Below are positions 1 to 34,154 of a stretch of 64,000 nucleotides of DNA, one piece after another; the stretch's first letter is position 1; each line of letters starts with the position of its first letter. Origin of the DNA: an uncultured bacterium (lineage in GTDB: Bacteria; Zixibacteria; MSB-5A5; JAABVY01; JAHJOQ01); assembly GCA_965369655.1 (NCBI GenBank), contig CBDUQR010000002.1, forward strand, positions 33,857-97,856, read 5' to 3'. The translations under genes and the position numbers were made by a program. The notes beneath the pieces are model-generated. The model saw only the letters and a list, made by a program, of their open reading frames with translations, was not told where the DNA came from and ran no database searches.

Positions 1-555
1 GCGCCGTTTGACGGCGAAATCACGGCCGTATATGTTGACCCGGGAGAGATGGTTGCGCTCGGACAGATTGTCTTCACTATTGTACGGACAGATACGATTG
101 AGATCAACGTGGAAGTCTCGGTTGAGGATGCCCTGTCTCTCTGGCCGGGTATGGACGCTGATATCCGTTCGAGATCAATTCCGGATACAGTCTTTTACGG
201 GATTCTGCATTCGGTATCAGTCAAAGCGAGCGAAGTAACAAAGAGGTACCCTGTTCGAGTACTGGTTCCAAACGAATGCGGGACTCTTCTGCCCGGCATG
301 CATACTGAGATAAGAATCATTACCGGCAGCATCTCGGATGCGATTATTGTTCCACTTGATGCCATACTCAATCGCAATGGAAAGAGAGTGGTGTTTGTCG
401 TTGAAAACGGAGTGGCTGTAATGAGGGAAGTCAGCATCGTTGCAAAACAGTCTACCGATGTCGTGCTTTCATCAGGAATTGCGGCCGGGGAGACACTTGT
501 TGTCGTTGGACAGCACAGCCTTCGGGACGGCCAGGAAGTCACAATCACCGAGTAG
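1..555 (+). CDS. Efflux RND periplasmic adaptor (membrane fusion protein). It is 5'-truncated at the window edge.
   Basis: The frame is open from position 1. The C-terminal beta-barrel motifs of HlyD/AcrA-type adaptors are present (FDGEITAVYVDPGEMV, GDQVTITE-like tail). A stop 3 nt before the RND permease start suggests translational coupling. Confidence 0.85.
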   Translation, partial: APFDGEITAVYVDPGEMVALGQIVFTIVRTDTIEINVEVSVEDALSLWPGMDADIRSRSIPDTVFYGILHSVSVKASEVTKRYPVRVLVPNECGTLLPGMHTEIRIITGSISDAIIVPLDAILNRNGKRVVFVVENGVAVMREVSIVAKQSTDVVLSSGIAAGETLVVVGQHSLRDGQEVTITE

Positions 556-557
556 TC

Positions 558-3500
558 ATGAGCAAGATATCCAACTACGCTGTCAATAACCCGGTCGTCG
601 TGAACCTGTTGATGATCGGGATCATCGTCATCGGCCTGTTCTGGGCTATGCCGGGCTTGCCCCGAGAGCTTATCCCTGAGATGTCGATGAACTGGGGGTT
701 CATTATCGTCCCATATCCGGGTGTTGCTCCTGACGAGATCGAGCAATACGTGACTATCCCGGTTGAAGACGAGGTTGAAGGTATCGACGGGATCGAGACG
801 ATTACCTCAACGAGTTCCGAGGGTCTTTCTCAAGTCTCTGTGAAATTCGAGACGATGTCGGATGATGAATTCGACAAGCGTTTCCAGGATCTCGAATCGA
901 GAGTGAACTCGATGCGTGATCTGCCGGATGGGGCGGAGGATCCGATCATCATCGATTTCGGTACCGCGGAAATGCTGCCGATGGTTTCGGTTGTCATCTC
1001 GGGCGACATTCCCGAGGCCGAAATGAAAGCGATTGCCGAGGATCTCCGCGACGTCATCGAGGACATCGACGATGTCTCGAAGGCCGACATCTATGGCCTG
1101 CGCGAACGAGAGATATGGGTGGAGGTCAGTTCCTCGAAGTTAGAGTATTATGGACTGACTCTCGGCCATATCGTGACGGCCTTGAACTCGCAGAACGTGT
1201 CGATACCCGGCGGCAGGATTGACGTTGGGCGCGAAGAGTATCTGCTCCGTACGGTCGGTCAGTTCGATTCGGTCGATGAGATGCGCGATGTGATCGTGGC
1301 CTCGACGCCGGACGGCGGATTCATCAGGCTCTCGGATATCGCCGAAATCTCTGATACTTTCGAGAAACGTACCACAACTTCGAGATACAACGACCAGAAA
1401 TCGATGACGATCTCGACATCGAAGAAATCGAACGGGAATACGATCGCGCTGATAAAGCAGATCAGGCAGACATGCGAGTATTACGAGACGAAGCTGCCGC
1501 CCGGTGTGACGATTTCGATCTCCAGCGATACCGGCATCATGATTGATGAGATTCTCTCCACGTTGACAAACAACGCGTATTTCGGCCTCATACTCGTGTT
1601 GATCCTGTTGACGATTGTCATGGGCTGGCGCAATGCGCTGTTTGCGGCGATCGGCATCCCGATATCGTTCATGCTGACGTTCATATTCCTCTGGGCCAGC
1701 GGGGAGTCATTCAACGGGAACTCACTCTTCGGACTTGTGCTTGTCCTCGGAGTCGTTGTCGATGATGCGATCATCATAATCGAAAACAGCTATCGCTATT
1801 TTCAACAGGGTTACAGCTCACATCAGGCAGCCAAACTCGGTACGGCAGAGGTAGTCGGCCCGGTTACAGCAGCCACAGCAACAACTATCGCAGTATTTCT
1901 TCCTCTGATGTTTGTTCCGGGCATAATCGGGAAGTTCATGAGAATCGTACCGATTACAGTCTGCCTGACGCTCATAGCTTCTCTTTTCGAGTCATTCGTG
2001 ATACTCCCGTCGCATTTCGCGGAGTGGAGCGGCAAACTTAGGTCAAGGAAGAAGAAGCACAGACCCTGGTTCGGAAAGCTGCGTCGCCGGTATATAAAGA
2101 TGCTGGCATTCACGATCCGCCGTCGCTATGTCGCGGTTTCCTCGATTGTGGTGCTACTCTTCGTAGCGGGCGTATTCATCGTCGCGGTAGTGGGTGTGGA
2201 GCTGTTTCGCGAAGACGAGATGGATATGATGCAGATATTCGTTCAGCTTCCACCGGGAACACGAATCGAAACGACTGATGAAATTCTCAGGGATATCGAA
2301 CAGCTTGTCTGGAAACTCCCGGATGGTGAGGTCGAATCCGTTATTGGCACCGGTGGTGTTATGCAGACGGACAAGGAGTGGCTGCAACGGACGTATGTCG
2401 GGCAAGTGGTGGTTAATCTGAGGAACAAGAAAGAGCGACTCTATACGGGGCCGCAGTTGCGCGCGATGATGGATTCGCTGATCAGGCCGCTGATCGCCGG
2501 AACCGAGGACATTAGAGTTGCAACTATCAATACCGGTCCGCCTGTGGGAGCGCCAATCGAGTTCAAGATCAAGGGGAAACATTTCGATCAACTCGAAAAG
2601 CTTGCCGATGAACTCAAAGACTCGCTCGCGACAGTTCCGGGCGTCTACAGCATCAACGACGATTTCCAGCTTGGCAAGAGGGAGCTTAAGGTCGAGGTCG
2701 ATATCGAGCGCGCGGCGATGCTCGGTCTCGACGTCGCAACGGTCGCTGCGGCTGTCGGCGGCGCATTCGACGGGATCCCGGCTGGCGTGTACCGGGATGG
2801 CGACGACGAGGTCGATATAATCGTCAAGTATGATAGGGGAAGCAGGAACGAACTTGATGATCTTCAGAATCTCAAGATCATGAACAGGTTCGGTCAGTTG
2901 ATCGCATTCAGGGATGTTGCCACGGTCCAGACCGATCAGGGCTACGCTGACATCCATCGATTCGATGGCGACAGGGCGATCACCGTCTCGGCTGAAATCG
3001 ACAAGGCGCAGAGCACTATCGACGTTGCTATCAACAAAATTGTCGAATCATACGAAGCGATCTCTCCAAAATACCCAGGGTACAGGATCGACTTCGGCGG
3101 AGAATTCAAAGAATTCGAGACAGCGTTCGACAATATCATAATGCTTTTCATGGTCGGAATGATACTGATATATGCTATCCTCGGCGCACAGTTCAAATCG
3201 TTTGCGCAGCCGCTCATTATCATGTTTACGATACCGTTCGCTGTGATCGGCGCGGCGCTCGGACTGTTCGTGACGGGCAATCCGTTTTCGATCGCCACCA
3301 TGTACGGCATCGTGGCACTTGCGGGGATCGTGGTGAACGACTCGCTCGTATTGATCAGCTTCGTCAACAGCCGTCGTGTGACAGGAGCGGAGAGGCTTCG
3401 CGCTGTCATGAAAGCCGGCCTGATCCGGCTGCGACCAATCATCCTGACGTCGATCACTACGATATTTGGTCTTCTGCCGATGACGCTCGGTCTTGGCGGT

Positions 3501-3689
3501 AAATCCTTGACATGGTCACCGCTCGCGAACACGATCGTCTGGGGGCTCTCAGTCGCGACATTGATGACGCTCTTTATCATTCCAGCGCTGTATCTGATAG
3601 TCAGCGACATATCGAGATACTTCGGGGTGTCGAGATTCAAATCCGATGTAACAGACAGATCGCTGAGAAAGAGATTCCTGACTCGATAG
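558..3689 (+). CDS. RND efflux transporter permease (AcrB/CzcA superfamily), 1043 aa
   Basis: It has the 12-TM architecture with two large periplasmic loops and conserved RND motifs (GLVLVLGVVVDDAIIIIEN, repeated in the second half). It directly follows the adaptor gene. Confidence 0.9.
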   Translation: MSKISNYAVNNPVVVNLLMIGIIVIGLFWAMPGLPRELIPEMSMNWGFIIVPYPGVAPDEIEQYVTIPVEDEVEGIDGIETITSTSSEGLSQVSVKFETMSDDEFDKRFQDLESRVNSMRDLPDGAEDPIIIDFGTAEMLPMVSVVISGDIPEAEMKAIAEDLRDVIEDIDDVSKADIYGLREREIWVEVSSSKLEYYGLTLGHIVTALNSQNVSIPGGRIDVGREEYLLRTVGQFDSVDEMRDVIVASTPDGGFIRLSDIAEISDTFEKRTTTSRYNDQKSMTISTSKKSNGNTIALIKQIRQTCEYYETKLPPGVTISISSDTGIMIDEILSTLTNNAYFGLILVLILLTIVMGWRNALFAAIGIPISFMLTFIFLWASGESFNGNSLFGLVLVLGVVVDDAIIIIENSYRYFQQGYSSHQAAKLGTAEVVGPVTAATATTIAVFLPLMFVPGIIGKFMRIVPITVCLTLIASLFESFVILPSHFAEWSGKLRSRKKKHRPWFGKLRRRYIKMLAFTIRRRYVAVSSIVVLLFVAGVFIVAVVGVELFREDEMDMMQIFVQLPPGTRIETTDEILRDIEQLVWKLPDGEVESVIGTGGVMQTDKEWLQRTYVGQVVVNLRNKKERLYTGPQLRAMMDSLIRPLIAGTEDIRVATINTGPPVGAPIEFKIKGKHFDQLEKLADELKDSLATVPGVYSINDDFQLGKRELKVEVDIERAAMLGLDVATVAAAVGGAFDGIPAGVYRDGDDEVDIIVKYDRGSRNELDDLQNLKIMNRFGQLIAFRDVATVQTDQGYADIHRFDGDRAITVSAEIDKAQSTIDVAINKIVESYEAISPKYPGYRIDFGGEFKEFETAFDNIIMLFMVGMILIYAILGAQFKSFAQPLIIMFTIPFAVIGAALGLFVTGNPFSIATMYGIVALAGIVVNDSLVLISFVNSRRVTGAERLRAVMKAGLIRLRPIILTSITTIFGLLPMTLGLGGKSLTWSPLANTIVWGLSVATLMTLFIIPALYLIVSDISRYFGVSRFKSDVTDRSLRKRFLTR

Positions 3690-3739
3690 CTAAGTAGAAC
3701 ACAACTCGAAAATTCTATTCCACCAGCAAAGAAAGTATC

Positions 3740-3768
3740 TTGACTAATCTGTCGACTTGTGGTATAAT
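3740..3768 (+). promoter_or_regulatory. Sigma70-like promoter with extended -10 (TTGACT-N17-TGgTATAAT), upstream of the 3886 gene
   Basis: TTGACT is at 3740-3745 and TATAAT at 3763-3768, separated by a 17-nt spacer that ends in TGG. This is the only sense-strand consensus promoter in the 196-nt gap. Confidence 0.4.
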
Positions 3769-3885
3769 TTCTATACAAGAGCGCGGTAATAGCTTCTACC
3801 CCTCCTATTTTATCACCGTCGTATCAAGGTGTACTGGTGCACCTGATTGCATCAGAACAACAAACAACTTCATAAGGAGGACGCC

Positions 3886-4722
3886 ATGAAGTGTTCGACC
3901 AGTATCATCCTGACAATCCTGCTGTCGATTTCGTTTATTGGCAGTACGGCATTGGCACAATTACCGGGGGACTGCAACGGATCTGGAGGAATCGACATCG
4001 ACGACGTGGTTTTAATCACATCCTACTTGTTGGAAGGGGACCAAGTTCCGACACCGGAATCAAGATCGAACTGTGACTGTGACAATAACCCTGGAATCTC
4101 GTTGGCTGATGCAGCGTTTATTATAGAAAGCATCTTCAATGGTCAGCAGTTGTTCCCGCCGACTGGCACAAAACTGACCAGGGGTTCCAGATCGACGATG
4201 TTCACAGGCGGACGGGCTACCGGGCTTCCGGGCATGGACAGGATAACTGTCCACATCGCAGTCGAGCCAAATGAAACCATCAACGGATTTCTGATACCGT
4301 TCTCTTACGCTTCACTGGCAGGCGACGCGGATATAAGCCTGACAAGCGTCGATTTTACGGGTTCCCTTCTTGAAGGATCGATAGTAGCGGTTATTGACGA
4401 TTCGAACAAGGTTCTCATGCTGTATGATGATCCACTTGCTCCGCCGAGTCTTACAGGGGGGACAATTGGACTTCTGGCCACTGTCTACTTCACCCAGAAT
4501 GCTCCCGGGAACGCTGTAGCGCTTCTCAAGACATCGACCGACAGGGTATCGCCGCTGCTCTTCCCGGAAGATTTTGTGAGTGATGATGGAGCACGGGTGC
4601 TTTATCCGGGCTTTGTCGAAAGGCCTATTGGCGATATTGACTGTTCATACTCCGTGGATATTGACGATGTTGTTGGAATGATAGGTTACATTTTTTCCGG
4701 CTTGCCGATCTGTTACTGGTAG
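3886..4722 (+). CDS. Secreted adaptor protein: N-terminal double dockerin-like repeat, cohesin-like beta-sandwich segment, C-terminal single dockerin-like repeat
   Basis: There is an AGGAGG RBS 7 nt upstream of ATG 3886 (the six-frame ORF start at 3847 lacks an RBS). A signal peptide is present (MKCSTSIILTILLSISFIGSTALA). Dockerin-like Ca-binding repeats are GDCNGSGGIDIDDVVLITSYLL, CDCDNNPGISLADAAFIIESIF and a third copy DIDCSYSVDIDDVVGMIGYIF. The central segment (RITVHIAVEPNETINGFLIPFSYASLAGDADISLTSVDFTGSLLEGSIVAVIDDSNKVLMLYDD) has the alternating hydrophobic pattern of cohesin modules. Confidence 0.6.
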   Translation: MKCSTSIILTILLSISFIGSTALAQLPGDCNGSGGIDIDDVVLITSYLLEGDQVPTPESRSNCDCDNNPGISLADAAFIIESIFNGQQLFPPTGTKLTRGSRSTMFTGGRATGLPGMDRITVHIAVEPNETINGFLIPFSYASLAGDADISLTSVDFTGSLLEGSIVAVIDDSNKVLMLYDDPLAPPSLTGGTIGLLATVYFTQNAPGNAVALLKTSTDRVSPLLFPEDFVSDDGARVLYPGFVERPIGDIDCSYSVDIDDVVGMIGYIFSGLPICYW

Positions 4723-4914
4723 CAAAATACCTGGGTCAGGACTGCCTGTCACTCGTCTCAGGACGAACAGGGGTCCTGACCTGTTACTCCTGGATTATCC
4801 TGGCAACGCTCGATGGTATCCATCCTGTTTCGCCATCCGATTTCCGGCATTGAAGAGCGTGTAAGTATTTTATGTAAGCGGCCATGATGTGTATTGATTT
4901 GAAGGAGGATACAC

Positions 4915-5170
4915 ATGGTCGACAAGCGCGACGATGCAGACAAGCTCATTGATGAGCTGATCGCAGGCTAAGTTCCCGAGGAGATAGTTGGCGAGGGTGG
5001 TCTACAGCAAGCCCTTACCAAACGGGTCTACGAACGGGCTTTTGAGGTGGAGATGACGCATCATCTGGGTTACCCGCCCAGAGCCCCCGAGGGCAGGAAC
5101 ACGGGCAACTCCCGTAATGGAAAGACCACCAAAACAGTCAAGACCGGGACCGAGTCGGTCGCAGATCCCG
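4915..5170 (+). pseudogene. IS256-family (mutator-type) transposase N-terminal remnant with an in-frame TAA
   Basis: There is a GGAGGA RBS before ATG 4915. The translation MVDKRDDADKLIDELIAG*VPEEIVGEGGLQQALTKRVYERAFEVEMTHHLGYPPRAPEGRNTGNSRNGKTTKTVKT matches the conserved IS256 transposase N-terminus (…LGY…GNSRNG…KTVKT). An in-frame stop lies at 4969-4971. Homology is lost after about 85 codons and no DDE domain follows. Confidence 0.6.
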
Positions 5171-5369
5171 TCATTGACCCCGATCTTCTCCCTCCGGGAT
5201 CCCGTGGGAGAGGGGATCCTGAGGGAGTTGCATTTCTGCCGAAACTACCTTTTGGGACAACCTCTCCACATGTGCCGATGGCGTTCAAGGTGGGGCAGAC
5301 TCTTCGAGGCACAGGACTCGCGAGGAGAGGCTGTCCCAAAAGTAGGTCGTGTTCCGAACCTGATGTAAT

Positions 5370-5600
5370 TCGGTCTCTGATCCCGATCCCGAGGGACTGG
5401 CAGGCTTCGCCTGCTGCGGAACGCCGACCTACTGGAGACCAGGACTTATGAGACAACCTCAGGACGTCTGCCGCCCACAGGAAACAGATCGCCACGTCGC
5501 TGTCGCTCCTCGCGATGACGTCGATTCCTGTTCACACCATGAGGGTTTTCTTAACAAGCCCGTCCTTTCCGGTTGCGATTGCTATATCCGATCAGTTGTC
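5370..5600. repeat. Noncoding repeat module, family C copy 1 (co-linear with 63385-63582)
   Basis: It shares ordered sub-motifs with the 63385-63582 copy: CGGTC..GATCCCGATCCYGAGGGAC, then AGATCRCCACGTCG..CGCTCCT..GATGACG, then TTTTCWAACAAGCCC. Confidence 0.45.
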
Positions 5601-5602
5601 TG

Positions 5603-6817
5603 TTAGCTTGAATATGGATCTTTGCCCTGGAGCTTGTCAGCGTAGAGCGGCGACATGGCAAGAAGCTTCTCGATAATCTCAGGCATGACCGAGATCATGT
5701 AGTCGACCTCTTCCTCACTGTTGTCCTTGCCCATCGAGACTGTGAGCGATCCCGAGCACAACTCCGCCGGAACGCCTACCGCCGTCAGCACATGCGATGT
5801 GACGAGATCTTCTTCGTCCTTACCCCGCAGGTTGGATGCGCACGCCGATCCTGATGCACACATGACGCCTTTCATGTTGAGCATCAGAAGCAGTGATTCG
5901 CCTTCGATGTACCTGATCCAGAAGCTGACATGTCCGGGCAGCCGGTACATCGGATGGCCGGTAAATTCGAGGAATTCGACATTGTTGTCGAGCCAGTCCC
6001 AGAGTTTTGTCTGGAGATTATCGAGGTGCTCGGTTCTTGACGGCGTTTCATCTATGGCGATTTCGCATGCTTTGCCCATTCCAACAATGCCGGGCAGATT
6101 CTCGGTGCCGGACCTGTAGCCCATTTCCTGCATTCCGCCGTCGAGCTGGCACTTGAGCAGGTTTCCGCTTTTCACATAGAGCGCGCCGACTCCCTTCGGC
6201 CCGTACATATTGTGCGACGAGAGCGTCATCGAGTCGACGTCGAGAAGGCGTACATCGATCGGGATGTTGCCGCCAGCCGCCGCAGCATCGGTGTGAAAAA
6301 ACACTCCCATCTCAGATGCAAACTTCCCAATGTCACCGATCTTCTGGACGGTCCCGATCTCGGAGCTTGCAGACTGTACGATCACCATCGCGGTATCGGC
6401 GCGAATCGCTTTGCGAACAGCAATCGGATCAACCCTGCCGTATTTGTCGCATTCGACGAGCGTGATTTCGTAGTCATCCTGCCTGAGTGCGTGGAACTGG
6501 CTGAGTACCGAGAAGTGTTCGATCGACGACGCGACAATATGCCTGCCCTTGTCCCGGTTGGCCTGCAGAAAGCCTTTGATCGCAAGGTTGTTCGATTCGG
6601 TCGCGCCGGAAGTGAAGATCACTTCATCCGATTCGGCGTTGATAAGACTTGCGACCTGCTCGCGAGCCTTGTCGAGCGCCTGCCCCGCCGCAACACCCTG
6701 CTTGTGGATGTGCGACGACGGGTTGCCGTAAAACTCTGAGAAATATGGCAGCATTGCCTCGACAACGCGCCTGTCGACCGGCGTCGTGGACTGGTGGTCG
6801 AAGTATATATTTCTCAT
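5603..6817 (-). CDS. nifS: Cysteine desulfurase (NifS/IscS class V aminotransferase)
   Basis: The 404-aa protein has the N-terminus MRNIYFDHQSTTPVDRRVVEAML and a PLP-lysine region (SSHNMYGPKGVGALY). A NifU scaffold gene follows on the same strand. Confidence 0.85.
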   Translation of the reverse strand: MRNIYFDHQSTTPVDRRVVEAMLPYFSEFYGNPSSHIHKQGVAAGQALDKAREQVASLINAESDEVIFTSGATESNNLAIKGFLQANRDKGRHIVASSIEHFSVLSQFHALRQDDYEITLVECDKYGRVDPIAVRKAIRADTAMVIVQSASSEIGTVQKIGDIGKFASEMGVFFHTDAAAAGGNIPIDVRLLDVDSMTLSSHNMYGPKGVGALYVKSGNLLKCQLDGGMQEMGYRSGTENLPGIVGMGKACEIAIDETPSRTEHLDNLQTKLWDWLDNNVEFLEFTGHPMYRLPGHVSFWIRYIEGESLLLMLNMKGVMCASGSACASNLRGKDEEDLVTSHVLTAVGVPAELCSGSLTVSMGKDNSEEEVDYMISVMPEIIEKLLAMSPLYADKLQGKDPYSS

Positions 6818-15012: not shown

Positions 15013-15522
15013 GTATCTCGATATGTTCAAGCTAATCCTTTCATCAGTACAATGTTACGTCAATACTTGTATCGCACGATACCGCCGAATACTTGAATAG
15101 TCAATTAGAAAATCTTGACGATAATGTCGCGATGAGGGGTAGGTGGCTGCGACTACGTTTCTGCACTTAGTTTGAGCAGGTCACGTAACTCATTGTCCTG
15201 AAGTACGCTCATGGAAATAGTTGATCCAAGTTTTCTCTTGACACATTGCGTGTACCTGTTATATTGAGCATGTTGATTATGGTCCGCTCTCGGGGGATGG
15301 CGGATAGCGGCTGACTGACGGCCGCAGTTGTTCGTAATTACTCGCTTCGTCTGTACCCTTCGTCGAGTTGCATGTGCTTGAGGCTCGAAAGTTTTGTTCA
15401 AGAATACAATGTATGTAGGATTCCAAATTGCTGATAAGGAGGTGAAACAGCACAGGAGTTTATGTGGGGTTTGGTCTGAGGACCACACTTATTTTTTAAG
15501 ACTTGACAACAGGAGGATTTCA

Positions 15523-18500
15523 ATGAAATCTGCGAAATTCTTAGCAATCTTTGTGGTACTTGCGGTTCTCTTTGCCGTTCCTGCGTTCGCGCAGGATACT
15601 GGCGTTCTGGACACCGTCCGCTGGGTACCGGAGAGTACGACGTGGACGATCGATGCCGCAGGAGATTCGCTCTTCTCGATCGAGGTCTTTGGCTGGACGG
15701 ACCAGAGTATTACAGCTCTTTCACTCGGTTTCAAGATCCCGACGAGCTCCGGTGGCGGCACCGGTCATGATGATTCGCTGATAGTGGTTGATTCATTTAA
15801 TTTCACTATGTCGACGGGCTTTCCAGTACCATGGGCCTGGAGCGCGGTGGATTCAGCGCGCTTCGCAGATGATTTTCTACGGCACAGCTTGTACAATGGC
15901 ATCCTGCTCGGACGGATCATGCCGACCTTCCCTGCGAATACATCATCTAAGATTGGTGATCTGTTCATCAATATCCCTGATCCCACCTTGCTGCCATGTG
16001 AGTTCGACATAGCTATCGACTCGGTCTTTTTCCCGCCTGCTGGGGCTTTCAAGTTCTCTCCCTCTGGCGGCTCAGGCTACGCGCCTGAGTATGTAGGTGC
16101 GACAATTCATGTGGTGAACAATATCTGTATTCCTGATGAGGAACCGACAATTTACCTCAATCCGACAAGCTTTACATTTAACGCTGTCGAGAATGGTTCC
16201 AATCCGGTCGCGCAATCACTCAGTATCATTAATACAGGTTCTGGAACACTGAACTGGACAGCATCAGTTGATCAGACATGGTTGACTCTTGCCGCATACA
16301 GTGGTACAGGAGATGGTGCAGTAAATGTATTAGCTAATAGAGGTAGTTTGACTGCTGGCACTTACAATGGTACGGTGACAGTGTCTGATCCTGCGGCGAC
16401 GAATAATCCGCAGACAGCATCAGTGACATTTATCATTGCACCGGCTCCACCTGAGATCGTGCTCGATACGACGAGCTTTACGTTCGATGCAATTGAAGGT
16501 GGACCGAATCCGGATGATGATACTCTCTGGATCTCAAATGGCGGTGGTGGAACGCTCGACTGGTCGGTTGGCGATGATGCAACCTGGCTGACCACTACTC
16601 CCGTTGCGGGTACCGGAGACGGATACACCGTCCTGAGCGTGAATGTCTCAGGCCAGCAAGTCGGCACTCACGTTGCGACTGTTTTTGTCACCGATCCTGC
16701 CGCAAGCAATACTCCTCAGACGGTTGATGTTACACTGAATATTGTATGCGACCCATCTGAGATAGAGGTGACTCCGTTGAGTTTCACATTCGATGCTGTC
16801 GAAGGTGGACCGAATCCACCGGCACAGAATATGTTAATTGGAAGTAGTGGTTCTTGCGACGTCAATTGGACTGCAACGATTATAGCTGGATGGCTTTCAC
16901 TTTCTGAATATTCCGGAACTGCGGCGTCGAGTGTCGATATTTCTGTGGACATCTTGGGATTAGACGCCGGTACTTATGAAGATACTATCGTGATTTCACA
17001 CGATGGGATCAATGAAAGTCCCGTTAAAGTTCCAGTGACGCTGTATGTTAATTGCATTCCGGCAGAGTTGGAGACTTCACCATCGAGCTTCGCTTTTGAT
17101 GCTCAGGAGGATGGCGCAAATCCGACCCCGCAGATCCTGCACATTACAAATGGTGGGACTTGTGAACTATATTGGGGTGCAAGTAATTCTCAGCCCTGGC
17201 TCACGCTTTCTGATTACTCTGGAACTGGCCCCATTGATATCGATGTCATGGTTGATATAACCAGCATGACTGCTGGCGAGTACCACGATACGATTGTCGT
17301 ATTCGATGATGGCAGTCAAATTGACACCATACCTGTTGTGCTCACAATCGGTACAGAGCCGCTGTTGATGGTTGCGCCGAGCGAGCTCAATTTCACCGCT
17401 CCGGATGGCGGACCGAATCCTGCTTCTCAGGATGTTGATATTACATCGACCGACTCGCCTGATACGGAGCTTGAGTGGGTCGTTATTGAGCCTGGCAAGC
17501 CTATCGCCTGGTTGAGTTATGATCCGGCTTTGGGCACCACCCCTTCGGTTATGACTGTCAGTGTAAATATGGATGGGCTGTCTGCGGGTGTTTACAACGA
17601 CAGCATAATGCTTACGAAGAATGTTCCGGACAAGGACGATATCGGCGATACGGTGACTGTCTATGCTGAATTGACGGTTACTGGTGTTCCGGAAATCGAT
17701 CTGATTCCGAATTACTTCTTCTTCACCTGGGAAGAGGGTTCACCGATTGTTCCTGATGACCAGGATATGAATATCACCAACACAGGCTCCGGTACCCTGA
17801 ACTGGACTCTCTATGATACCGAGCTGATTGGCTGGCTTGATCCGTCGGCGTTTTCAGGTACCGCGCCATCGGTGGTGACACTTTCGATAGACACTGGTCC
17901 ATCACTTACAGCCGGCAACATATATGTTGACACGATTGTAGTTGAATGTGCTGATGCGATCAATCCGCTCGAGATTGCGATTGTCGAGCTTGAAGTGACC
18001 GAACCGCCGGTGCTTGACGACGACACGGTCTGGGTTGGAAATACAAGCGGACTTCCCGGCGAGCAGGTTATCGTTCCTGTGACTTTCGCCAACAGTGTAT
18101 ATCTGTCAGGCATCTCACTGCCGCTTATCTTTGACGATATGCTGGCGAAAATCGACAATGGTATTACCTGTGACTCGGTCTCGTTCATCGGGTCGAGGGT
18201 CGACTACATTGGCGCGAAGCCAGTCACGATTGACAATATCAACAAGACTGTACTGGCAGGTGTGATAGTTATTAGCGAGCCGCTAATTCCGGCAGGCAAC
18301 GGCCTGATGGCGAACCTGTATTTCTCGATCGCTCCGGGCGCCGCACCGGGAATCGTTCCGATAGACTCGACGTTTATCCTTCCTGCAAACGAACTGATGT
18401 TCGCTGACAGCCTTGGTGGCGCGATCTATCCGGAGTTCTTCTATGGAACAATTGAGATTCTCGAACCACCTTCGACGGCTTGCCTCGAGGTCAGCGATGG

Positions 18501-20562
18501 CTTCTTTGATTTCCAGGCGATTGTAAGCGGTCCGAATCCTTACGATCAGTACCTTGACATCATCAACTGTGGTGATGTGGAACTCAACTGGGATGCCTGG
18601 ACTCATGTAGGTACGTGGCTGAGCATCGATCCAACAACGGGAGTGGATGATGCAACGGTGACTCTCTCAGTCGATATTACAGGTCTTCCGGAAGGTGATT
18701 ACATCGATTCAATTACTGTTGATGCCGGTGATGCCGACAATTCACCGCAGTACGTACATGTTGACTTGCACGTTGGCCCGCCGTTGTCACAGTACATCTC
18801 AGGCGTCGTGCAGGATCCTGCCGACGTAGTGATTGACGGCGCGACTGTCGAGCTCTGGGATGTGTTCCCCACTGGTACCATCCTCGAGACGGCAACTTCA
18901 GCAGGCGATGGTTCGTTCATGTTCACTGGTTACACAGGTTATTATGTGGTCCGTGCGTACAAGAACGGTTACTATCAGAATTTCATGGATGTGACCGCGC
19001 CAGACGAGGCTGTTGTCATAGTCCTGACGCCGACTGGCACGCCAACTCCTACCAACGAGTGGGTGGATCTCTACTGTGACATGGCCATGTTCGAGGATTA
19101 TCCGATCCTCCCGGGTGATGTCGTAGAAGCTTACGATCCGGACGGTATTCTCTGCGGTCAGTATTTCGTCACCGAGATTGGCAAGTACGGCTTCATGCCG
19201 GTCTACCGCGACGACGACTTCACACCTGGTATCGACGAAGGTTGTGATCCGGGTGACGCGATCACGGTGATGCTCAACGGCTTCGATATGACTCCGTACC
19301 TCGGTGCTCCGTTATTCTGGACCCAGAATGGTGACAGGATCGAAGCATGCTTCGATGGTTACATCATCGACGAGATTTGCATGGATCTCTGCGAGGGTTG
19401 GAACCTGATCTCGTGGAATGTCGATACGGAAGTTGACGACATCGACGTCGTTATGCTTCCGATCATGGATTACATTGACGTCATGCTTGGATTCGAACAG
19501 GGTGCGTTGACGTTCGATCCCGATTATCCTGAGTTCTCTACGCTCGAGTTTGTCGACCACTACCACGGTTACTGGGTCAAGATGACTCAGGCTGCCGAGT
19601 TCTGCGTATCAGGTTTGCCGGTCGATCCATCGACGCCAATCTCTCTCGAAGAAGGCTGGAACCTTGCGTCCTATCTGCCTGATGGCGTTATGGCCACAGA
19701 GGAAGCTCTGGTTTCGATTCTTGACGTGCTGATCGTCGCTCTCGGATTCAACTGCGAAGAGGGCGGTATGGTGTACGATCCTGAGAATCCTGGCATGTCT
19801 GACCTCGAATTCCTTGGCCCAGGATTTGGATACTGGTACAAGGTCACTCAGGATGTCATGCTGACCTATCCGAGCGATGTTCCGTGGGCTGCGATGTTCT
19901 CCGGTGAGCCGGACAAGACATCGGCCAAGCTTGCCGTGCTGAAAGATGTTACTCCTACGACTCAGTGGGTGGATATCTTCGGCGGCAATGTCACGATTGA
20001 CGGTCGTGCGCTTGCAACCGGTTCGATCGTCGAGGCTGTCGATGAACACGGCGCCGTTTGTGGCGCGTTCGAGATCAAAGCCTCCGGCAGACTCGGTTTC
20101 ATGGCGGTCTATGGCGATGACATGACAACTTCAGATACGTACGAAGGTCCGACTACGGGCGGTACGTTTTACCTCGTGGTGGACGGCATCGCGACAGAGG
20201 AGACATTCGTGTGGACCGGGCACGGCGAGCGTGTCGAGATCGGCGCCCTGAGCTCTCTCGGTGGCGGCGGCGTAACGCTTCCGGATGCTTACGTACTGGA
20301 GCAGAACTATCCGAACCCGTTCAATCCGAAGACCAGCATCTCGTTCAGCGTCGGTAACGATGCTTATGTGAATCTGGTCGTATACAACCTTCTTGGCGAA
20401 GTTGTGAATGTTCTGGTCGATGAATTCAGAGCCGCCGGCGACTACACGGTCGACTGGAACGGTGACGACCTGAGCGGACGCACAGTCTCTTCCGGCGTCT
20501 ACTTCTACAAGCTGACGTCCGGCGACTATACTGAGACCAGGAAGATGATGTTGATGAAGTAA
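15523..20562 (+). CDS. Giant T9SS-sorted scaffoldin-like surface protein (1679 aa). It contains 7 BACON-type Ig repeats, a cohesin-like module, a CarboxypepD_reg-like domain, two novel ~77-aa W/CG repeats, two EGWNL repeats and a C-terminal T9SS sorting domain.
   Basis: There is an AGGAGGA RBS before ATG 15523 and a signal peptide (MKSAKFLAIFVVLAVLFAVPAFA). Seven repeats fit the BACON pattern SFTF(D/N)A.EGGPNP…LNW…WL…SGTGDG…AGTY…VTV…NPQT. The cohesin-like segment is VWVGNTSGLPGEQVIVPVTFANSVYLSGISLPLIFDD…NLYFSIAPGAAPGIVPID. The C-terminal YPNPFNPKTSISF…GVYFYKL…RKMMLMK is a T9SS C-terminal domain. Confidence 0.8.
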   Translation: MKSAKFLAIFVVLAVLFAVPAFAQDTGVLDTVRWVPESTTWTIDAAGDSLFSIEVFGWTDQSITALSLGFKIPTSSGGGTGHDDSLIVVDSFNFTMSTGFPVPWAWSAVDSARFADDFLRHSLYNGILLGRIMPTFPANTSSKIGDLFINIPDPTLLPCEFDIAIDSVFFPPAGAFKFSPSGGSGYAPEYVGATIHVVNNICIPDEEPTIYLNPTSFTFNAVENGSNPVAQSLSIINTGSGTLNWTASVDQTWLTLAAYSGTGDGAVNVLANRGSLTAGTYNGTVTVSDPAATNNPQTASVTFIIAPAPPEIVLDTTSFTFDAIEGGPNPDDDTLWISNGGGGTLDWSVGDDATWLTTTPVAGTGDGYTVLSVNVSGQQVGTHVATVFVTDPAASNTPQTVDVTLNIVCDPSEIEVTPLSFTFDAVEGGPNPPAQNMLIGSSGSCDVNWTATIIAGWLSLSEYSGTAASSVDISVDILGLDAGTYEDTIVISHDGINESPVKVPVTLYVNCIPAELETSPSSFAFDAQEDGANPTPQILHITNGGTCELYWGASNSQPWLTLSDYSGTGPIDIDVMVDITSMTAGEYHDTIVVFDDGSQIDTIPVVLTIGTEPLLMVAPSELNFTAPDGGPNPASQDVDITSTDSPDTELEWVVIEPGKPIAWLSYDPALGTTPSVMTVSVNMDGLSAGVYNDSIMLTKNVPDKDDIGDTVTVYAELTVTGVPEIDLIPNYFFFTWEEGSPIVPDDQDMNITNTGSGTLNWTLYDTELIGWLDPSAFSGTAPSVVTLSIDTGPSLTAGNIYVDTIVVECADAINPLEIAIVELEVTEPPVLDDDTVWVGNTSGLPGEQVIVPVTFANSVYLSGISLPLIFDDMLAKIDNGITCDSVSFIGSRVDYIGAKPVTIDNINKTVLAGVIVISEPLIPAGNGLMANLYFSIAPGAAPGIVPIDSTFILPANELMFADSLGGAIYPEFFYGTIEILEPPSTACLEVSDGFFDFQAIVSGPNPYDQYLDIINCGDVELNWDAWTHVGTWLSIDPTTGVDDATVTLSVDITGLPEGDYIDSITVDAGDADNSPQYVHVDLHVGPPLSQYISGVVQDPADVVIDGATVELWDVFPTGTILETATSAGDGSFMFTGYTGYYVVRAYKNGYYQNFMDVTAPDEAVVIVLTPTGTPTPTNEWVDLYCDMAMFEDYPILPGDVVEAYDPDGILCGQYFVTEIGKYGFMPVYRDDDFTPGIDEGCDPGDAITVMLNGFDMTPYLGAPLFWTQNGDRIEACFDGYIIDEICMDLCEGWNLISWNVDTEVDDIDVVMLPIMDYIDVMLGFEQGALTFDPDYPEFSTLEFVDHYHGYWVKMTQAAEFCVSGLPVDPSTPISLEEGWNLASYLPDGVMATEEALVSILDVLIVALGFNCEEGGMVYDPENPGMSDLEFLGPGFGYWYKVTQDVMLTYPSDVPWAAMFSGEPDKTSAKLAVLKDVTPTTQWVDIFGGNVTIDGRALATGSIVEAVDEHGAVCGAFEIKASGRLGFMAVYGDDMTTSDTYEGPTTGGTFYLVVDGIATEETFVWTGHGERVEIGALSSLGGGGVTLPDAYVLEQNYPNPFNPKTSISFSVGNDAYVNLVVYNLLGEVVNVLVDEFRAAGDYTVDWNGDDLSGRTVSSGVYFYKLTSGDYTETRKMMLMK

Positions 20563-27331: not shown

Positions 27332-30300
27332 TTAGCAGCAGGCAGCCGGATCGGGCGCTGGTCCTCCACCGAAGATGTAGTTGATCAGATACACTACATC
27401 ATCGATGTCGATACCGCCCAAACCGTTGGCATCACCGCAACAGATATGATCCACAGGCTCTGGTCCGCCACCGAAGATATAGTTGATCAGATACACCACA
27501 TCATCGATGTCGACACCACCAGAACCGTTAGCATCGCCCGAAACGCAATCGGACACAGGCTCACAACCCGGACAGTCAATGTTAGCACAGATCCAGGTCT
27601 TACCCTTATCGATGAGATTTTGCAGATCTGAAAGGCCTGTAAGGCTCGAGGCCTTCACCTTGCAGTATACGACGCACTCCTCTGCTGCAAGTGTGAGATC
27701 CTGAGCGATGACGTACACCGAATTGAGGTCCTCTACTGAATCCGAGGCGAGAAATCCGGTATGTGTAGCCAACAGATTGCCTATTTCGGCAGGTACATAA
27801 CCGGAGTTATCATACACCCAGGTGTCGTTTTCGAGGACGATGGCACCAACGATATCACCACAGAAGGATGCGCCGCCATAGTAGTCCTCGTAAGGCGAAC
27901 TGCCGGCGGGACCATACTGGTAGACCATCTGTCTGTCTTCATCGACTCCGGACTGGTTGTCACTGCCGTCTTCGCCGTCCGGTATATCCCAGTCGATACC
28001 TTCACCGAGATGGATGGTGATAGCGGCATCGGTGTTGTTGCAGACTTCAACGCGCTCGATCAGTACACAGACATCCGGGTGCTTCGGCACGTACCACTCA
28101 ATCACACCGGTGATGGCTGAGTCTGGAGTAGCCCACTCGCCGTGAGCGTAGTCGTAGTTGACATCATCCACAAGTATCAGCGAGTCTAAAGCGACGAAGC
28201 TGACTTTGCTGTTGGAGCCGTCGAACATCGAGAAGAATGTCTGAGAGACGTCGTCAGCATATGTCACGATGATACCCTCGTCGTACATTGGCGCGAACTC
28301 TTCGAGGAACCAGAACATATTGCCGAGATCACTGCGTTGAGCAACACCGGCTCTCGGGACGTTCCAGACGCCGATAGACCAGCAAGCGGTCGACAGAATT
28401 TCGTATTCCGGCGGGAAGTACTTACAGGCGACCAGAAGGTTGACAGGAATGTCGACTTGATCGGAACCTTCAGTACTGGTCAGACTGACACTCACGTTAC
28501 CGATTTCGGCGGTTTCGTTGGCCACCGGGCCAACGTCCACGGTGATAGTGGCTACGGTATTGATACCAGCCGTCACCGTACCGGTACCGCCGGTGATGCT
28601 CATCCAGCTTTCAGTTTCGCTTACAATGTAGCCGATCTCGACGTTACCGGTGTTGACGATAACGACATCAAACGACGTCGTAGTCGGCATCGTGCAGTCG
28701 GTACCGCTCGTGGGAGAGATTATCACAGACTGGTCCTCAGGAGCGACCGAATAGCTGAAAATGGCTTCCGGAGTGAAGCATGGGTACGTGGCGTAGAGAA
28801 CCTCGTTCTCGGTTTCTTCTCCCTCATCGTGAACGAACGAGCCAGCGTCATGGTCGCTGACGTAGAAGAGGTGCAGTACACCAGACGAGTATTTGGCCAT
28901 CGATCCGAAGTTCTCGTTGTGGCATGCACCGGCCACACAGCCGTCGGAGTATGTATTGGTCAGGTTGACATAAGTGCCGAGCTTGACCGGGACGCCGCTG
29001 CCAGCGGTCGTCAGTGTGTCGAATTCGTCCAGGGTGCCGTCGGGACCCCATGTGATGCCGCCATCGCTCGATGCAGTCAGGCAGAATTCGCCGTTTGCAT
29101 AACCATTTGCGGAGCAATCACCGTTGTTGTCACCACGGGGCCAGGTTCCAAAACGAGTAAACGAAACGTACATGTTGCCGTCGCATTCGGAGATGTTGAT
29201 TCTGGAAATGGCGCCGAGACCACCACCGATACCGCCGCTGCAGAATCCAGTCGGGGAGGTAGCGTCGAGAACGCGCGATATGACGTTGCTGGACTGATCC
29301 CAGTGCCACATATTGCCGCGGAACAGCGGCTGGCAAGGATCATCTTCTCTGAAATCAGGAGTCAGCCAAATGATGTGAAGGTCCCCGTCAGAGTCGTAGA
29401 CGGCTGATATTTCCGATTGAGCCTTGTGCACAAAATTGATGGGGTCAAGTGTTCCTCCCTCGGTGTAGTCAGTGATGTTGACTTCCGAACCCCAGGTGGC
29501 GCCGCCGTCAGTCGATTCCATGTAGACTATGTCGTGTTGTACCCACTGGAAGTTATTGAGATCGCCGGCAGGGTTGCCATCGCCATCACAACTGTTTCTC
29601 GGGTCACCCTGCTCGTAGAAAGGTTTGCACCAGATGAGGGCCACGTCGTCCGATGTCGGAGCGGGATCAGAGCGAACAGTAGCATTGACCGTATGGGAAG
29701 CATCGATGTAGAGGCCGAGCGTGTCGGTAGAGGTACCGGGGCACTCAGCGAGATCACCGTCAATATACCGATAGTAGATGATCGATTGTATCGACTCGTC
29801 AGGAAGAGCCACCGGCGGCGACTCGGTTGAGACTATGTGCAGTATCTCTTCGCCGGTTGTCAGTTTCTGGAACTCACCTACCGGCCAAATGTATGCATCA
29901 CCTTCATTTGTGCCGGACATTTCTCCCTGGCAGTTCGGTGGACCCGGCGCCCAGCGACTCACGTCAGGAAGGGCTTGAGGAAAGTAGCCGGACGGTGGCA
30001 TCATATCTATGCCCGACCTTGTGGAATAGAGCGCCGAACCCGGGCCTGCATGCCAGAATCCGACCGCAACACCGGCGTCGGTGACGTCAATAGTGGTATA
30101 TCCGCCATTGTTGGCAGATGCTGAATTCCCGGTGTGGCCCCACACCCATGCGCTGGGAGTAGTGATTTTGCGAGAGTTGTAATATATTCTCCGAAAACCG
30201 CTATGATCAGTCGGATGGCCTCTCATCCAGAGAAAGTGAACATATTCCAAACCGCTACCCTGGAAGTTCGGCGTGTAAGCGATCTGCCTCCCCATCGTGC

Positions 30301-30914: not shown

Positions 30915-33900
30915 CTAACAGATATCAACGGGCGGAGGTCCTCCACCGAAGATGTAGTTAATCAGGTAGACTACGTCATCGATGTCGACGCCACCAGAAC
31001 CATTTGCGTCGCCGCAGCAATTATCCTGCACAGGCGGAGGTCCGCCACCGAAGATGTAGTTAATCAGATAGACTACGTCATCGATGTCGACACCGCCACT
31101 GCCGTTTGCGTCACCAGGCACGCAGTCGGGGCCACTGCTAACACAGCCGGGACAGTCGATTTCCGGTGTGTCGGCGATGAATTCCTTGCCCTTATCGATG
31201 AGATTCTGCAGATCCAAAAGGCTTGTAAGGCTCGAGGCCTTCACCTTGCAGAACGTGGTGCAGGCCTGTGCATCGAGGGTAAGATTCTGAGCGATGACGT
31301 ACACCGAATTGAGGTCCTCGGCTGGGTCCGGATTTGGGGCGACAAATCCGGTATGTGTAGCCAGCAGATTACCTATGTCGGCAGGTATGTAACCGGAGTT
31401 CGGATACACCCAGACATCGTTTTCGAGGACGATGGTACCGACGATGTCAACGCAGAAGGATGCACCACCGTGGTAGTCCTCGTAAGGCGAACTGCCAGTG
31501 GGACCATGCTGGTAGACCATCTGTCTGTCGGTATCGACTCCGCAATTGTTGTCAGATCCATCATCTCCATCCGGGAAGTCCCAGTCGATACCTTCACCGA
31601 GATGGATGGTGATAGCAGCATCAGAGTTGTTGCAGACTACGACGCGCTCGATCAGCACACAGTACACCGGGTGCTTCGGCGTGTACCAGTCGATAGTGCC
31701 GGTGATGACAGAGTCCGGAGTGGCCCACAGGCCATTGGCCTGTTCATAGGTGGAATGGTCTGTAACAGTCAATGGTCCCATGGCTATGAAGCTGGCATCA
31801 CTGTCAGAGCCGTCGAACATCGAGAAGAATGTCTGAGAGACATCCTCAGCGTATGTCAAGATGAGACCCTCGTCATACATCGGAGCAACATCCTCGACAA
31901 ACCACCACATGTTGCCCTCGTCATTTCTCTGAGCGAGTCCGGCTCTCGGAACGTTCCAGACGCCGACTGACCAGCAGTGTGTCGAGATCAGGGCATATTC
32001 GGGCACATAGTACAGGCACTCGACATGCGCCGTGACATCAACCACAATTCCCGATGCACTGCCAGCGGAGCTGGTCAGGTCGATTGTTACCGTCCCAGGG
32101 TATTCGCCCTCGGCCCCGATCGGACCAACTGTCATGACGACATCAGCCGTTGGATTGATGCCGGCAGTGATTGTACCACTACCGGAAGCAGGATTCAACC
32201 ATGACTGGTCGGATGTGAACGTATAGTTGATCGGAACGTTTCCTGCGTTCGTGATCGTAATAGTGAAGTCGTCGGTGTATTCGATAGTACAGTCGGGTAC
32301 GCCATTCGGTGCGATCGGCACGAACGCGCTTGATGGATCAACTCTGTAATCGAACGTACCTTCCGGCTCGAAGCACGGATATGTCATGTACATATATGCG
32401 TTATTTGTGTATTCACCTTCCGCATCCACAACGACGGCTGCGCCGGGATGGTTGTCGTCAATGTACGCGATATGTACGACGTCGGTCGAGTACTTGGCCA
32501 TGCTTGACCAGTGTTCGCTGTGGCAATCGCCAGCCACGCAATCGTCAGTGCGAGTGTTGGTCACGTTGACTGCCGTGCCAGTTTTCACTGCGGTACCTGT
32601 TCCTCCGGTCGTGAGGTAGTCGTATGGAGGAGCGGCAGCGTCCGGACCCCACGTGATACCACCGTCGCTGGAACCTGTCAGGAAGATGTCACCGTTGAGA
32701 AACATCAGATCCGAGTAGTCTCCACCAACACTGTCATGAATAACCATGGCAGGGTCCATTGTTGTGTCAGGATGAGCGCCGAAACGGGTGAACGAAACAT
32801 AGAGCCTCTCGTCACACTCGGAGATATTCGGCTTGCTGGTCATTATGTTCCACACACCGGTGTTCGAGAAAGTACCACCGGGTCCTCTGAAGAGGAAGGG
32901 CATCGTGGCGTCGTAGACCGGGGTGATTTCCTGGTTGAAATCATCCCAATGCCACATCATGGTGGTATAGTAGCTTCCTTCACACGCACCGGCAGCGGGC
33001 CATACCGGAGTATTCCAGACAATGTGCAGTGTGCCGAGATGGTCATACAGCGCAGTCACATCTGTATACGCCATGTACTTGATCTCACTGATCGCGAGAG
33101 TGCCGCCGTCTGAGTAATTGGTGATGTTGGTCGGTGTCGCATCCCAGGTCACGCCGCCATCATTGGATTCGAAGTAAGCGACGTCGTGCTGCCACTGTGT
33201 GTACTCGCAATCATTATTGGGATGGTTAGGATCAGGATACATATCCTTTAGATACACGATGGCGACCTTATCCGAACCCGGGTCGGATCGGACTACCGGG
33301 GTGATGTTCTGGTCCTCGGTCATCCAGCGACCGAGAGTATCCGTAGATGTACCCGTGCACTCGTCCGTGGTATCGTTCACAATACGGTAATAGATGAAAG
33401 ACTGTATCGTGGCTGCCGGGGGTATAGGATCCCCACCCGGGTTCTCGGTGGATATGACGTGATAGACGTCATTTCCGTCGACATTGTCATACTCTATGAC
33501 CGGCCAGAGGTATTCGCTTTCCAACTCATAACCATCCTCACCTTCGCCCTCGCAGTTTGGCGGAGCCGGTTGCTGAAGCTTGGAGAACGGGGTGTTCGGC
33601 GGCATTAGGTCCTTGCCAGCATATGTGAAGTAAAAACCGGCGAGGCCCTCATGCCAGGAGGCGATTGCGGCGCCTTCGCTATTGACGTCGATTGTCGTAT
33701 ATCCGCCATTAGCGCCGGAGAATGATGTGCCGGCGTTATCATCGCCGTGCCTGTGAATCCATGCCTGCGGGGCACTCAACTTTCTTGCGTTGTAACGGAT
33801 ATACCTTGTCGCGCCAGGGGCGTTCCTCCACATCCAGACAAAGTGAATATATGGATGCCCATTTAGATCTGGGGTGTAAGCAATCTGTCTGCCCATTGAG

Positions 33901-34154
33901 CCGTTGTGCTGGAAGTCGTAGTATGTCAAACCTGCGGTATCACCGGGAGGCTGGGGGACAGGGCCGAAGCGTGACGGGCCGAAACGCGGCACGTCAGCGC
34001 CGATAAGTTCATCGGATCCGCCAGTTACAGCCTGAGGGGTCAATTGGCTCTCTGGACGGACGTTACTGATTTCACTTTCGATTGCCATCGCAGGTGCGGC
34101 AAGCATAAGCAGGATCGCCACCGCAAGGCAAAAGACTTTTGAATTTTCTGTCAT
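30915..34154 (-). CDS. Secreted BNR-repeat beta-propeller protein with a C-terminal tandem dockerin-type repeat; paralogue B, 1079 aa
   Basis: The start is set at MTENSKVF, with a GGAGAGG RBS. It has a signal peptide and BNR motifs (SNDGGVTWDA, SSDGGITWGPDA). The C-terminus is GDANGSGGVDIDDVVYLINYIFGGGPPP repeated twice. Confidence 0.8.
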   Translation of the reverse strand: MTENSKVFCLAVAILLMLAAPAMAIESEISNVRPESQLTPQAVTGGSDELIGADVPRFGPSRFGPVPQPPGDTAGLTYYDFQHNGSMGRQIAYTPDLNGHPYIHFVWMWRNAPGATRYIRYNARKLSAPQAWIHRHGDDNAGTSFSGANGGYTTIDVNSEGAAIASWHEGLAGFYFTYAGKDLMPPNTPFSKLQQPAPPNCEGEGEDGYELESEYLWPVIEYDNVDGNDVYHVISTENPGGDPIPPAATIQSFIYYRIVNDTTDECTGTSTDTLGRWMTEDQNITPVVRSDPGSDKVAIVYLKDMYPDPNHPNNDCEYTQWQHDVAYFESNDGGVTWDATPTNITNYSDGGTLAISEIKYMAYTDVTALYDHLGTLHIVWNTPVWPAAGACEGSYYTTMMWHWDDFNQEITPVYDATMPFLFRGPGGTFSNTGVWNIMTSKPNISECDERLYVSFTRFGAHPDTTMDPAMVIHDSVGGDYSDLMFLNGDIFLTGSSDGGITWGPDAAAPPYDYLTTGGTGTAVKTGTAVNVTNTRTDDCVAGDCHSEHWSSMAKYSTDVVHIAYIDDNHPGAAVVVDAEGEYTNNAYMYMTYPCFEPEGTFDYRVDPSSAFVPIAPNGVPDCTIEYTDDFTITITNAGNVPINYTFTSDQSWLNPASGSGTITAGINPTADVVMTVGPIGAEGEYPGTVTIDLTSSAGSASGIVVDVTAHVECLYYVPEYALISTHCWSVGVWNVPRAGLAQRNDEGNMWWFVEDVAPMYDEGLILTYAEDVSQTFFSMFDGSDSDASFIAMGPLTVTDHSTYEQANGLWATPDSVITGTIDWYTPKHPVYCVLIERVVVCNNSDAAITIHLGEGIDWDFPDGDDGSDNNCGVDTDRQMVYQHGPTGSSPYEDYHGGASFCVDIVGTIVLENDVWVYPNSGYIPADIGNLLATHTGFVAPNPDPAEDLNSVYVIAQNLTLDAQACTTFCKVKASSLTSLLDLQNLIDKGKEFIADTPEIDCPGCVSSGPDCVPGDANGSGGVDIDDVVYLINYIFGGGPPPVQDNCCGDANGSGGVDIDDVVYLINYIFGGGPPPVDIC

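Follow-up and report, generated by a model that had tools for sequence, protein, structure and literature searches.

The 278-aa secreted protein described here combines a two-repeat dockerin, a cohesin domain and a further single dockerin repeat, and is best read as the smallest, cargo-less member of a family of proteins that share a dockerin-cohesin (Doc-Coh) cassette. Cohesins and dockerins are classic high-affinity connectors that have been studied almost entirely in the cellulosomes of Gram-positive bacteria and have found wide use in synthetic biology. The present family packs such a pair into a compact, almost linker-free unit of 250 aa, and its labelled members belong to a lineage without a cellulosome signature in the data considered here. 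The protein may act as a cargo-less, Ca2+-dependent and non-cellulosomal connector or cross-linker of large secreted proteins that carry dockerin tags, a proposal whose chances are judged to be about even. Even if this function should not hold, proteins so far annotated as 'hypothetical' can now be given their domains with confidence. The features discussed below are listed in Table 1; the window is the whole stretch of 64,000 nucleotides that was analysed.

Table 1. Features of the small-protein locus and of the candidate partner genes, in window coordinates
Feature	Position	Strand	Details
Sigma-70-like promoter	3740..3768	+	TTGACT-N17-TATAAT, TG upstream of the -10 box
5' leader	3769..3885	+	about 111 nt; RBS AAGGAGG at 3874-3880
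CDS, 278 aa	3886..4722	+	ATG start; signal peptide, dockerin, cohesin, single dockerin repeat
Predicted Sec signal peptide, residues 1-24	3886..3957	+	MKCSTSIILTILLSISFIGSTALA, then QLPGD; read from sequence
Two-repeat dockerin, residues 27-87	3964..4146	+	repeat 1 GDCNGSGGIDIDDVV, repeat 2 CDCDNNPGISLADAA; conserved Cys30/Cys63/Cys65 triad
Cohesin-fold domain, residues 97-245	4174..4620	+	nine beta-strands
Single dockerin repeat, residues 247-278	4624..4719	+	GDIDCSYSVDIDDVVGMIGYIFSGLPICYW; putative Cys253-Cys276 disulfide clasp
Strong hairpin 3' of the stop codon	4733..4782	+	terminator-like, without a T-run
Remnant of an SH3-domain gene, last 23 codons	4787..4855	-	cut off at the synteny break
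IS256-family transposase fragment, N-terminal part	4915..5154	+	Transposase_mut positions 10-74 of 379; in-frame TAA at 4969-4971
C-terminal symmetric dockerin of a 1069-aa secreted protein	27335..27541	-	gene 27332-30541; candidate cohesin ligand
C-terminal symmetric dockerin of its 1085-aa paralogue	30918..31121	-	gene 30915-34172; Pfam Dockerin_1 26.7 bits; candidate cohesin ligand

Domain architecture of the 278-aa protein

The complete double dockerin that the initial annotation had placed at the N-terminus is recognized as such by Pfam. Dockerin_1 (PF00404) matches residues 27-82 with 26.8 bits, above the cut-off of 22.9, and the same model matches 29 of the 33 family members. Two tandem Ca2+-binding loop-helix repeats make up a three-helix module, whose best sequence matches in the PDB are cellulosomal dockerins. 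The three cysteines of this module are either jointly present or jointly absent across the family.

Searches of Pfam, NCBIfam and PDB sequences with the single protein returned the N-terminal dockerin only, and the central and C-terminal pieces scanned alone against Pfam gave no further domain. The Pfam Cohesin model (PF00963) has no direct match at E-values up to 10, neither in the full protein nor in the isolated domain, and matches 0 of the 33 family members at E-values up to 1. A word-indexed homologue search recovered seven relatives only, and AF2 run on an alignment of eight sequences gave an unusable model (pLDDT 55). An exhaustive HMMER search yielded 444 matches, among them some 30 clusters of proteins of roughly 280 aa with the same layout, and on an alignment of 33 sequences AF2 gave a model with a pLDDT of 92.3 and, over the full 278-aa chain, a pTM of 0.83. 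Exactly nine strands, which form a jelly-roll sandwich, lie between residues 99 and 244 of this model, and the top 37 matches of a Foldseek comparison with the PDB are all cohesins. A sequence profile of the central domain, with more distant cassette relatives included, finds the solved cohesin 4uyp_A at an E-value of 1.1e-7, followed by nine matches of which seven are cohesins. In one relative (P0032), residues 356-448 match Pfam Cohesin (34.1 bits versus 24.1) and align to residues 117-209 of the query. Cohesin homology holds via the profile and such intermediates, though the Pfam Cohesin model is blind to the domain itself. The cohesin-like core proposed at the outset is thereby retained as a nine-stranded cohesin sandwich, but its length is about 150 aa and not about 100 aa.

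A weak similarity to CBM2 modules, with 6qfs at Foldseek ranks 38-39 and profile E-values of about 0.9 to 1exg and 6qfs, would be in keeping with a central sandwich that is a carbohydrate-binding module, in which case the protein would be a dockerin-tagged lectin. However, in both fold searches the top ranks go to cohesins throughout, and their E-values are two orders of magnitude better than those of CBMs; with a profile match to a cohesin at 1e-7 and a Pfam-positive homologous region in P0032, a lectin is hardly credible.

The further dockerin-like segment reported at the extreme C-terminus also finds support. Residues 247-278 were not detected by a Pfam scan of the segment alone; a family profile of residues 245-278 matches dockerin repeats almost exclusively when compared with the PDB (4dh2_B at an E-value of 8.7e-7), and all 16 matches below an E-value of 0.003 are dockerins. 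The same profile matches both repeats of the Pfam-positive dockerins of the window with 36-47 bits. The segment consists of one Ca2+ loop and one helix (residues 259-271 in the AF2 model) and corresponds to half a dockerin, while two distant family members (P0070 and P0122) have two repeats at this position. The lone third repeat is probably clasped by a disulfide between Cys253 in the loop and Cys276 in the tail, because the two residues covary among family members: the tail cysteine occurs in 22 of the 23 members that have the loop cysteine and in none of the 10 that lack it.

Repeat 1 and repeat 3 co-evolve. At the helix and recognition positions, their likeness is 24.75 within proteins and 19.79 between proteins, and none of 5000 permutations reached the observed score. 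The same permutation test revealed no co-evolution of repeat 2 with either repeat 1 or repeat 3.

The linkers are very short, with about 10 residues between dockerin and cohesin and about 3 between cohesin and third repeat, and are predicted with a confidence above 90. Since the pTM of 0.83 applies to the whole chain while the cohesin accounts for only 54% of it, the model suggests that the three modules are joined as one rigid body.

The Doc-Coh cassette family and the cellulosome

The family comprises about 30 clusters at 50% identity with one common architecture, and every named member is annotated as 'hypothetical protein'. The Doc-Coh cassette was found in 64 of 154 retrieved proteins, and the dockerin stands directly before the cohesin in 64 out of 64. 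Apart from the Doc-Coh-half-Doc layout of the small protein, the arrangements (Doc-Coh)x2, Doc-Coh-cargo-Doc and cargo-Doc-Coh-Doc occur, and the cassette is also present at the ends of large secreted proteins. The two family members with an organism label both come from Zixibacteria MAGs; a scan of a genome collection with a 7-sequence alignment found one locus, in a Zixibacteria MAG. Full-text literature searches for Zixibacteria or Latescibacteria in combination with dockerin or cohesin, and for the PDB code 8X3A, found nothing.

In the reading of the initial annotation, the protein would be a true cellulosomal adaptor scaffoldin that links the dockerins of enzymes to an anchoring scaffoldin, and the IS256 context would suggest a recent acquisition. 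The protein does unite one cohesin and a dockerin in a small secreted, non-catalytic polypeptide, as in ScaC and ScaH of Ruminococcus flavefaciens, its structural matches are cellulosomal cohesins and an IS256 fragment lies nearby. The nature of the dockerin-bearing proteins argues against this role. The 61 large relatives carry FG-GAP, TSP3 (thrombospondin-3), subtilase (S8), M14, PKD, beta-helix and BACON domains as well as arrays of 8-12 dockerins, and neither a glycoside hydrolase (GH) nor a CBM is among their 25 commonest Pfam families. Likewise, the window contains no GH or CBM cargo and no scaffoldin, and a search with the family HMMs found no other cohesin-like domain in its 64 kb. Its largest ORF (15394-20562, 1722 aa), which we take to be the 'big scaffoldin' of the initial annotation, combines four BACON_2 domains with a type IX secretion tail. 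The Zixibacteria labels of the relatives also speak against a cellulosome. For the 64-kb window the cellulosomal reading is largely refuted, and together with its postulated IS256 origin, which is taken up below, it is considered very improbable.

Several known systems resemble the protein in part. ScaC and ScaH of R. flavefaciens reportedly have the module order Coh-Doc, in contrast to Doc-Coh-half-Doc here. Their linkers are long and flexible whereas those of the present protein span a few residues, and the dockerin partners here are not carbohydrate-active enzymes. Moreover, the labelled relatives are Zixibacteria, presumably of Gram-negative type, the window holds no SLH or sortase anchoring system, and the extra single repeat with its putative disulfide clasp and the Cys triad set the protein apart. 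The non-cellulosomal cohesins of Archaeoglobus fulgidus (2xdh) and of the Clostridium perfringens sialidase and NagJ (2vo8, 2w1n) differ in lineage and architecture; unlike them, the cassette family is invisible to the Pfam Cohesin model (0/33). The best PDB match of the whole-family profile (E-value 3e-9) is the double-dockerin protein Clo1313_0689 of C. thermocellum (8x39, 8x3a). As in the small protein, the dockerin repeats of Clo1313_0689 number more than two, but they form adjacent, complete dockerins, whereas the third repeat here stands alone with the cohesin in between. A cohesin and a dockerin are also united in Amy4 of the R. bromii amylosome, whose cohesin binds the dockerins of other enzymes as well as its own (PMC4611034). 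Amy4 is a large GH13 amylase, whereas the small protein lacks both catalytic and cargo domains, and its binding is a prediction.

The protein adds to the known class of non-cellulosomal cohesin-dockerin proteins, within which it is distinguished by the Doc-Coh-half-Doc order, the near absence of linkers, a single repeat with a putative disulfide clasp, a conserved Cys triad and a cohesin that has diverged beyond the reach of the Pfam model.

Possible roles of the cassette

Besides the small protein's own, the only dockerins of the window are the C-termini of the 1069-aa and 1085-aa paralogues, which are 52.5% identical and whose only other Pfam matches are weak ones to BACON_2. These dockerins are almost perfectly symmetric and contain GDANGSGGVDIDDVVYLINYIFGGGP twice. 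Their signature, GSGGxDIDDVV, is common to repeat 1 of the small protein (GDCNGSGGIDIDDVV) and is shared by repeat 3 (SVDIDDVV) but not by repeat 2 (CDCDNNPGISLADAA). This match between the small protein and the large paralogues is a resemblance at the level of sequence.

In the proposed connector role, the small protein would be exported via Sec as a three-site Ca2+-binding protein composed of the two-repeat dockerin, the cohesin and the extra dockerin repeat. Its cohesin would serve as receptor for the symmetric C-terminal dockerins of large, non-enzymatic proteins that the same genome encodes for secretion; two candidates lie at 27-34 kb. Its own dockerin repeats would offer a surface of similar specificity to a second cohesin, which may belong to another copy or to an anchor encoded outside the window. 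In this way it would connect or cross-link the components of a protein assembly, on the surface or secreted, that is not a cellulosome. R. bromii Amy4, with its two kinds of binding, provides a precedent. Against this role count that no anchoring module (SLH, sortase signal, lipobox or type IX tail) and, in 64 kb, no second cohesin was found, and that Sec export by itself would take the protein no further than the periplasm of a presumably diderm cell. Such a function would provide a handle on how these uncultured bacteria organise their many dockerin-tagged giant surface proteins, and would supply protein engineers with a new and small cohesin-dockerin pair that is possibly orthogonal.

It is also conceivable, but rather unlikely, that the protein serves self-assembly only. 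The dockerin of one copy would then bind the cohesin of the next, since the short linker bars binding in cis. Instead of serving as an adaptor for other proteins, the copies would build Ca2+-dependent head-to-tail chains or closed oligomers, for instance as a component of a matrix or sheath. The strict placement of the dockerin immediately N-terminal to the cohesin, the tandem (Doc-Coh)x2 fusions and a tandem paralogue of the gene in one orthologous locus (L002) are consistent with this possibility, and co-evolution of repeats 1 and 3 is expected if both must fit one cohesin. Self-aggregation via its own cohesin and dockerin is known from R. bromii Amy4 (PMC4611034). On the other hand, the large proteins of the same genome, with the same dockerin signature, would compete for the cohesin, and a lone repeat, as at the C-terminus, may be insufficient for binding.

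Somewhat less probable still is a permanent contact in cis, with the N-terminal dockerin seated on its own cohesin, for example in a stable Ca2+-dependent stalk or cap. To the same low degree, Doc-Coh could then be regarded as a single structural unit without free connector function. The fixed arrangement of all modules implied by the pTM, the short and confidently predicted linkers and the adjacency of dockerin and cohesin in every cassette protein would all agree with such a unit. In the cohesin topology, however, strand 1 belongs to the sheet opposite the canonical binding face (8-3-6-5), and an 11-residue linker would have to span the distance from the dockerin C-terminus to this strand. 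A cis-locked unit also fails to account for the additional terminal dockerin of cassette proteins and for the co-evolution of repeat 1 with the terminal repeat.

A wider interpretation, which is tentative and on balance improbable, regards the cassette as the rigid, self-complementary block from which Zixibacteria and related uncultured bacteria build assemblies by an undescribed cohesin-dockerin system; that such a system would have nothing to do with polysaccharide degradation is put forward just as tentatively. If it existed, large adhesin- or protease-like proteins would join into head-to-tail chains through the cassette at one end of each and the symmetric dockerin at the opposite end, and the 280-aa cargo-less protein would be the cross-linker or chain terminator of such chains. 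The clasped repeat that co-evolves with repeat 1 would then be a new kind of half-dockerin, by which the same recognition surface is shown twice.

Gene, regulatory elements and the IS256 fragment

The ORF of the initial annotation is a real gene, with an ATG start and the ribosome binding site AAGGAGG upstream. The N-terminus bears, by eye, the signs of a signal peptide (Lys2, a hydrophobic core and A-L-A before the predicted cut at Gln25), and a signal peptide is present in every full-length family member. The promoter, which had been labelled 'textbook', matches 11 of 12 consensus positions. Both hexamers are kept in the closest relative (locus L001), and the leader is about 90% identical between the two and better conserved than what precedes the -35 box. 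TTGACA-17-TAxxxT boxes are also found upstream of the orthologues in L002 and L005, at -138 to -156. The leader RNA matched no Rfam family with a meaningful score, its fold stability is not significant (z -1.6) and no structure is conserved across four orthologues, distant ones included; a riboswitch-like leader was dropped on these grounds. Downstream of the stop codon, the hairpin folds with -33.4 kcal/mol (z -4.0), and none of 200 shuffled sequences folds as well. With its conserved promoter and leader and this hairpin, the gene looks stand-alone, in line with its description as monocistronic.

The initial annotation had also pointed to a decayed IS256 transposase immediately behind the gene, and had taken it as a sign of mobility or recent acquisition. 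A fragment with an in-frame TAA is indeed present, but the hairpin and the SH3 remnant intervene. In the closest relative, an 81%-identical orthologue is found in the corresponding position behind the RND pump, and no IS is present. The contig of this orthologue is collinear with window positions 1-4855 (4.86 kb) at 89% nucleotide identity, and the collinear block comprises the upstream RND efflux operon, the promoter, the leader, the gene and the hairpin. Past the break, the contig continues into a complete SH3-domain gene. Because this gene is complete there and cut to its last 23 codons in the window, it was the neighbour that was damaged: the IS-associated rearrangement truncated the SH3 gene and not the small-protein gene.

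The GC content of the gene is about 0.50, the same as that of its flanks, and dN/dS versus the orthologue is 0.23. The neighbourhoods of other, more distant orthologues are unrelated and free of IS. Their contexts differ, the closest one excepted, and reveal no conserved partner gene. IS-adjacent synteny, which had been suggested as a check, is not seen either: the single IS256 fragment (about 65 codons) has no counterpart at the orthologous loci that were compared. Recent horizontal acquisition was rejected on composition, synteny and dN/dS. A gene borne or mobilised by IS256 was rejected as well, given a single fragment of this size with an in-frame stop and a collinear orthologue without IS; the syntenic orthologue, the normal GC content and the purifying selection equally count against the IS256 origin of a cellulosomal adaptor. 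The IS256 fragment is an unrelated, incidental scar. The gene itself, with a promoter of its own and a terminator-like hairpin, would appear to reside on the chromosome, to be inherited vertically and to be subject to purifying selection. In the distant orthologues, too, it is always a stand-alone gene.

Apparently separated halves of a dockerin in the small protein

Within the alignment of the small-protein family (A2), repeat 1, which lies in the N-terminal dockerin, and repeat 3, the lone C-terminal repeat, were found to co-evolve within proteins, and the observed score was matched by 0 of 5000 permutations. Repeat 2 belongs to a distinct and conserved type (CDCDxxPG). The small protein looks as if it were an ordinary dockerin whose two symmetric halves have been separated by repeat 2 and the cohesin.

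Family members have either all three of Cys30, Cys63 and Cys65 or none of them. The Ca2+ loops of a canonical dockerin occupy the two opposite ends of the module, and the triad would for this reason not be explained by a simple intradomain disulfide. The mature protein contains an odd number of cysteines (5).

A second gene of the same dockerin-cohesin-lone repeat layout, a tandem paralogue, lies immediately upstream of the orthologue P0004 in locus L002, and locus L003 carries an identical copy. A single in-frame TAA splits this paralogue in the middle of the cohesin. Since the split copy is seen in two independent assemblies, it represents either a pseudogene inactivated by a nonsense codon or an assembly feature common to both.

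Dockerins and type IX tails on other proteins

The two large secreted paralogues encoded side by side at 27-34 kb share 52.5% identity and end in two-repeat dockerins that are almost perfectly symmetric and flanked by Cys pairs (…DCPGC…, …ICC…, …ACC). In their first ~1000 residues, Pfam finds only weak BACON_2 matches and one M-factor match, the latter weak and implausible. The type IX tail proteins of the window (see table) show that the large secreted proteins of this genome carry tags of both kinds, type IX tails as well as C-terminal dockerins.

Three environmental relatives (P0031, P0033 and P0039) consist of 8-12 dockerin modules in tandem, in one case fused to a subtilase. Compared to the usual scaffolds, which offer many sockets per chain, these proteins are inverted and present many plugs per chain.

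Features discussed in the text (window positions unless L002 is named)
Feature	Position	Strand	Remarks
Leader CCCCTCCT	3795-3810
RBS AAGGAGG	3874-3880
N-terminal dockerin	3964-4146		contains repeat 1
Cys30, Cys63, Cys65	3973-3975, 4072-4074, 4078-4080		in two Ca2+ loops of N-terminal dockerin
Repeat 3	4624-4719
Intervening stretch	5155-5602
nifS-like gene	5603-6817	-
1722-aa protein	15394-20562	+	four BACON_2, one CarboxypepD_reg, type IX secretion C-terminal sorting domain
349-aa protein	20620-21669	+	FlgD_ig, Por_Secre_tail; next after 1722-aa protein
Secreted protein, ~1070 aa	27332-30541	-	paralogue of adjacent product
Secreted protein, ~1085 aa	30915-34172	-	paralogue of adjacent product
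Tandem paralogue	L002 5868-6710
In-frame TAA	L002 6351-6353

Leader and downstream flank

In the minimum-energy fold of the leader, which is not significantly stable (z -1.6), CCCCTCCT pairs with the RBS. This element is conserved in the closest orthologue, and its pairing with AAGGAGG is not conserved in distant orthologues. Between the IS256 fragment and the nifS-like gene, both strands contain open frames that matched no family, and this stretch may represent more decayed IS or rearrangement debris.
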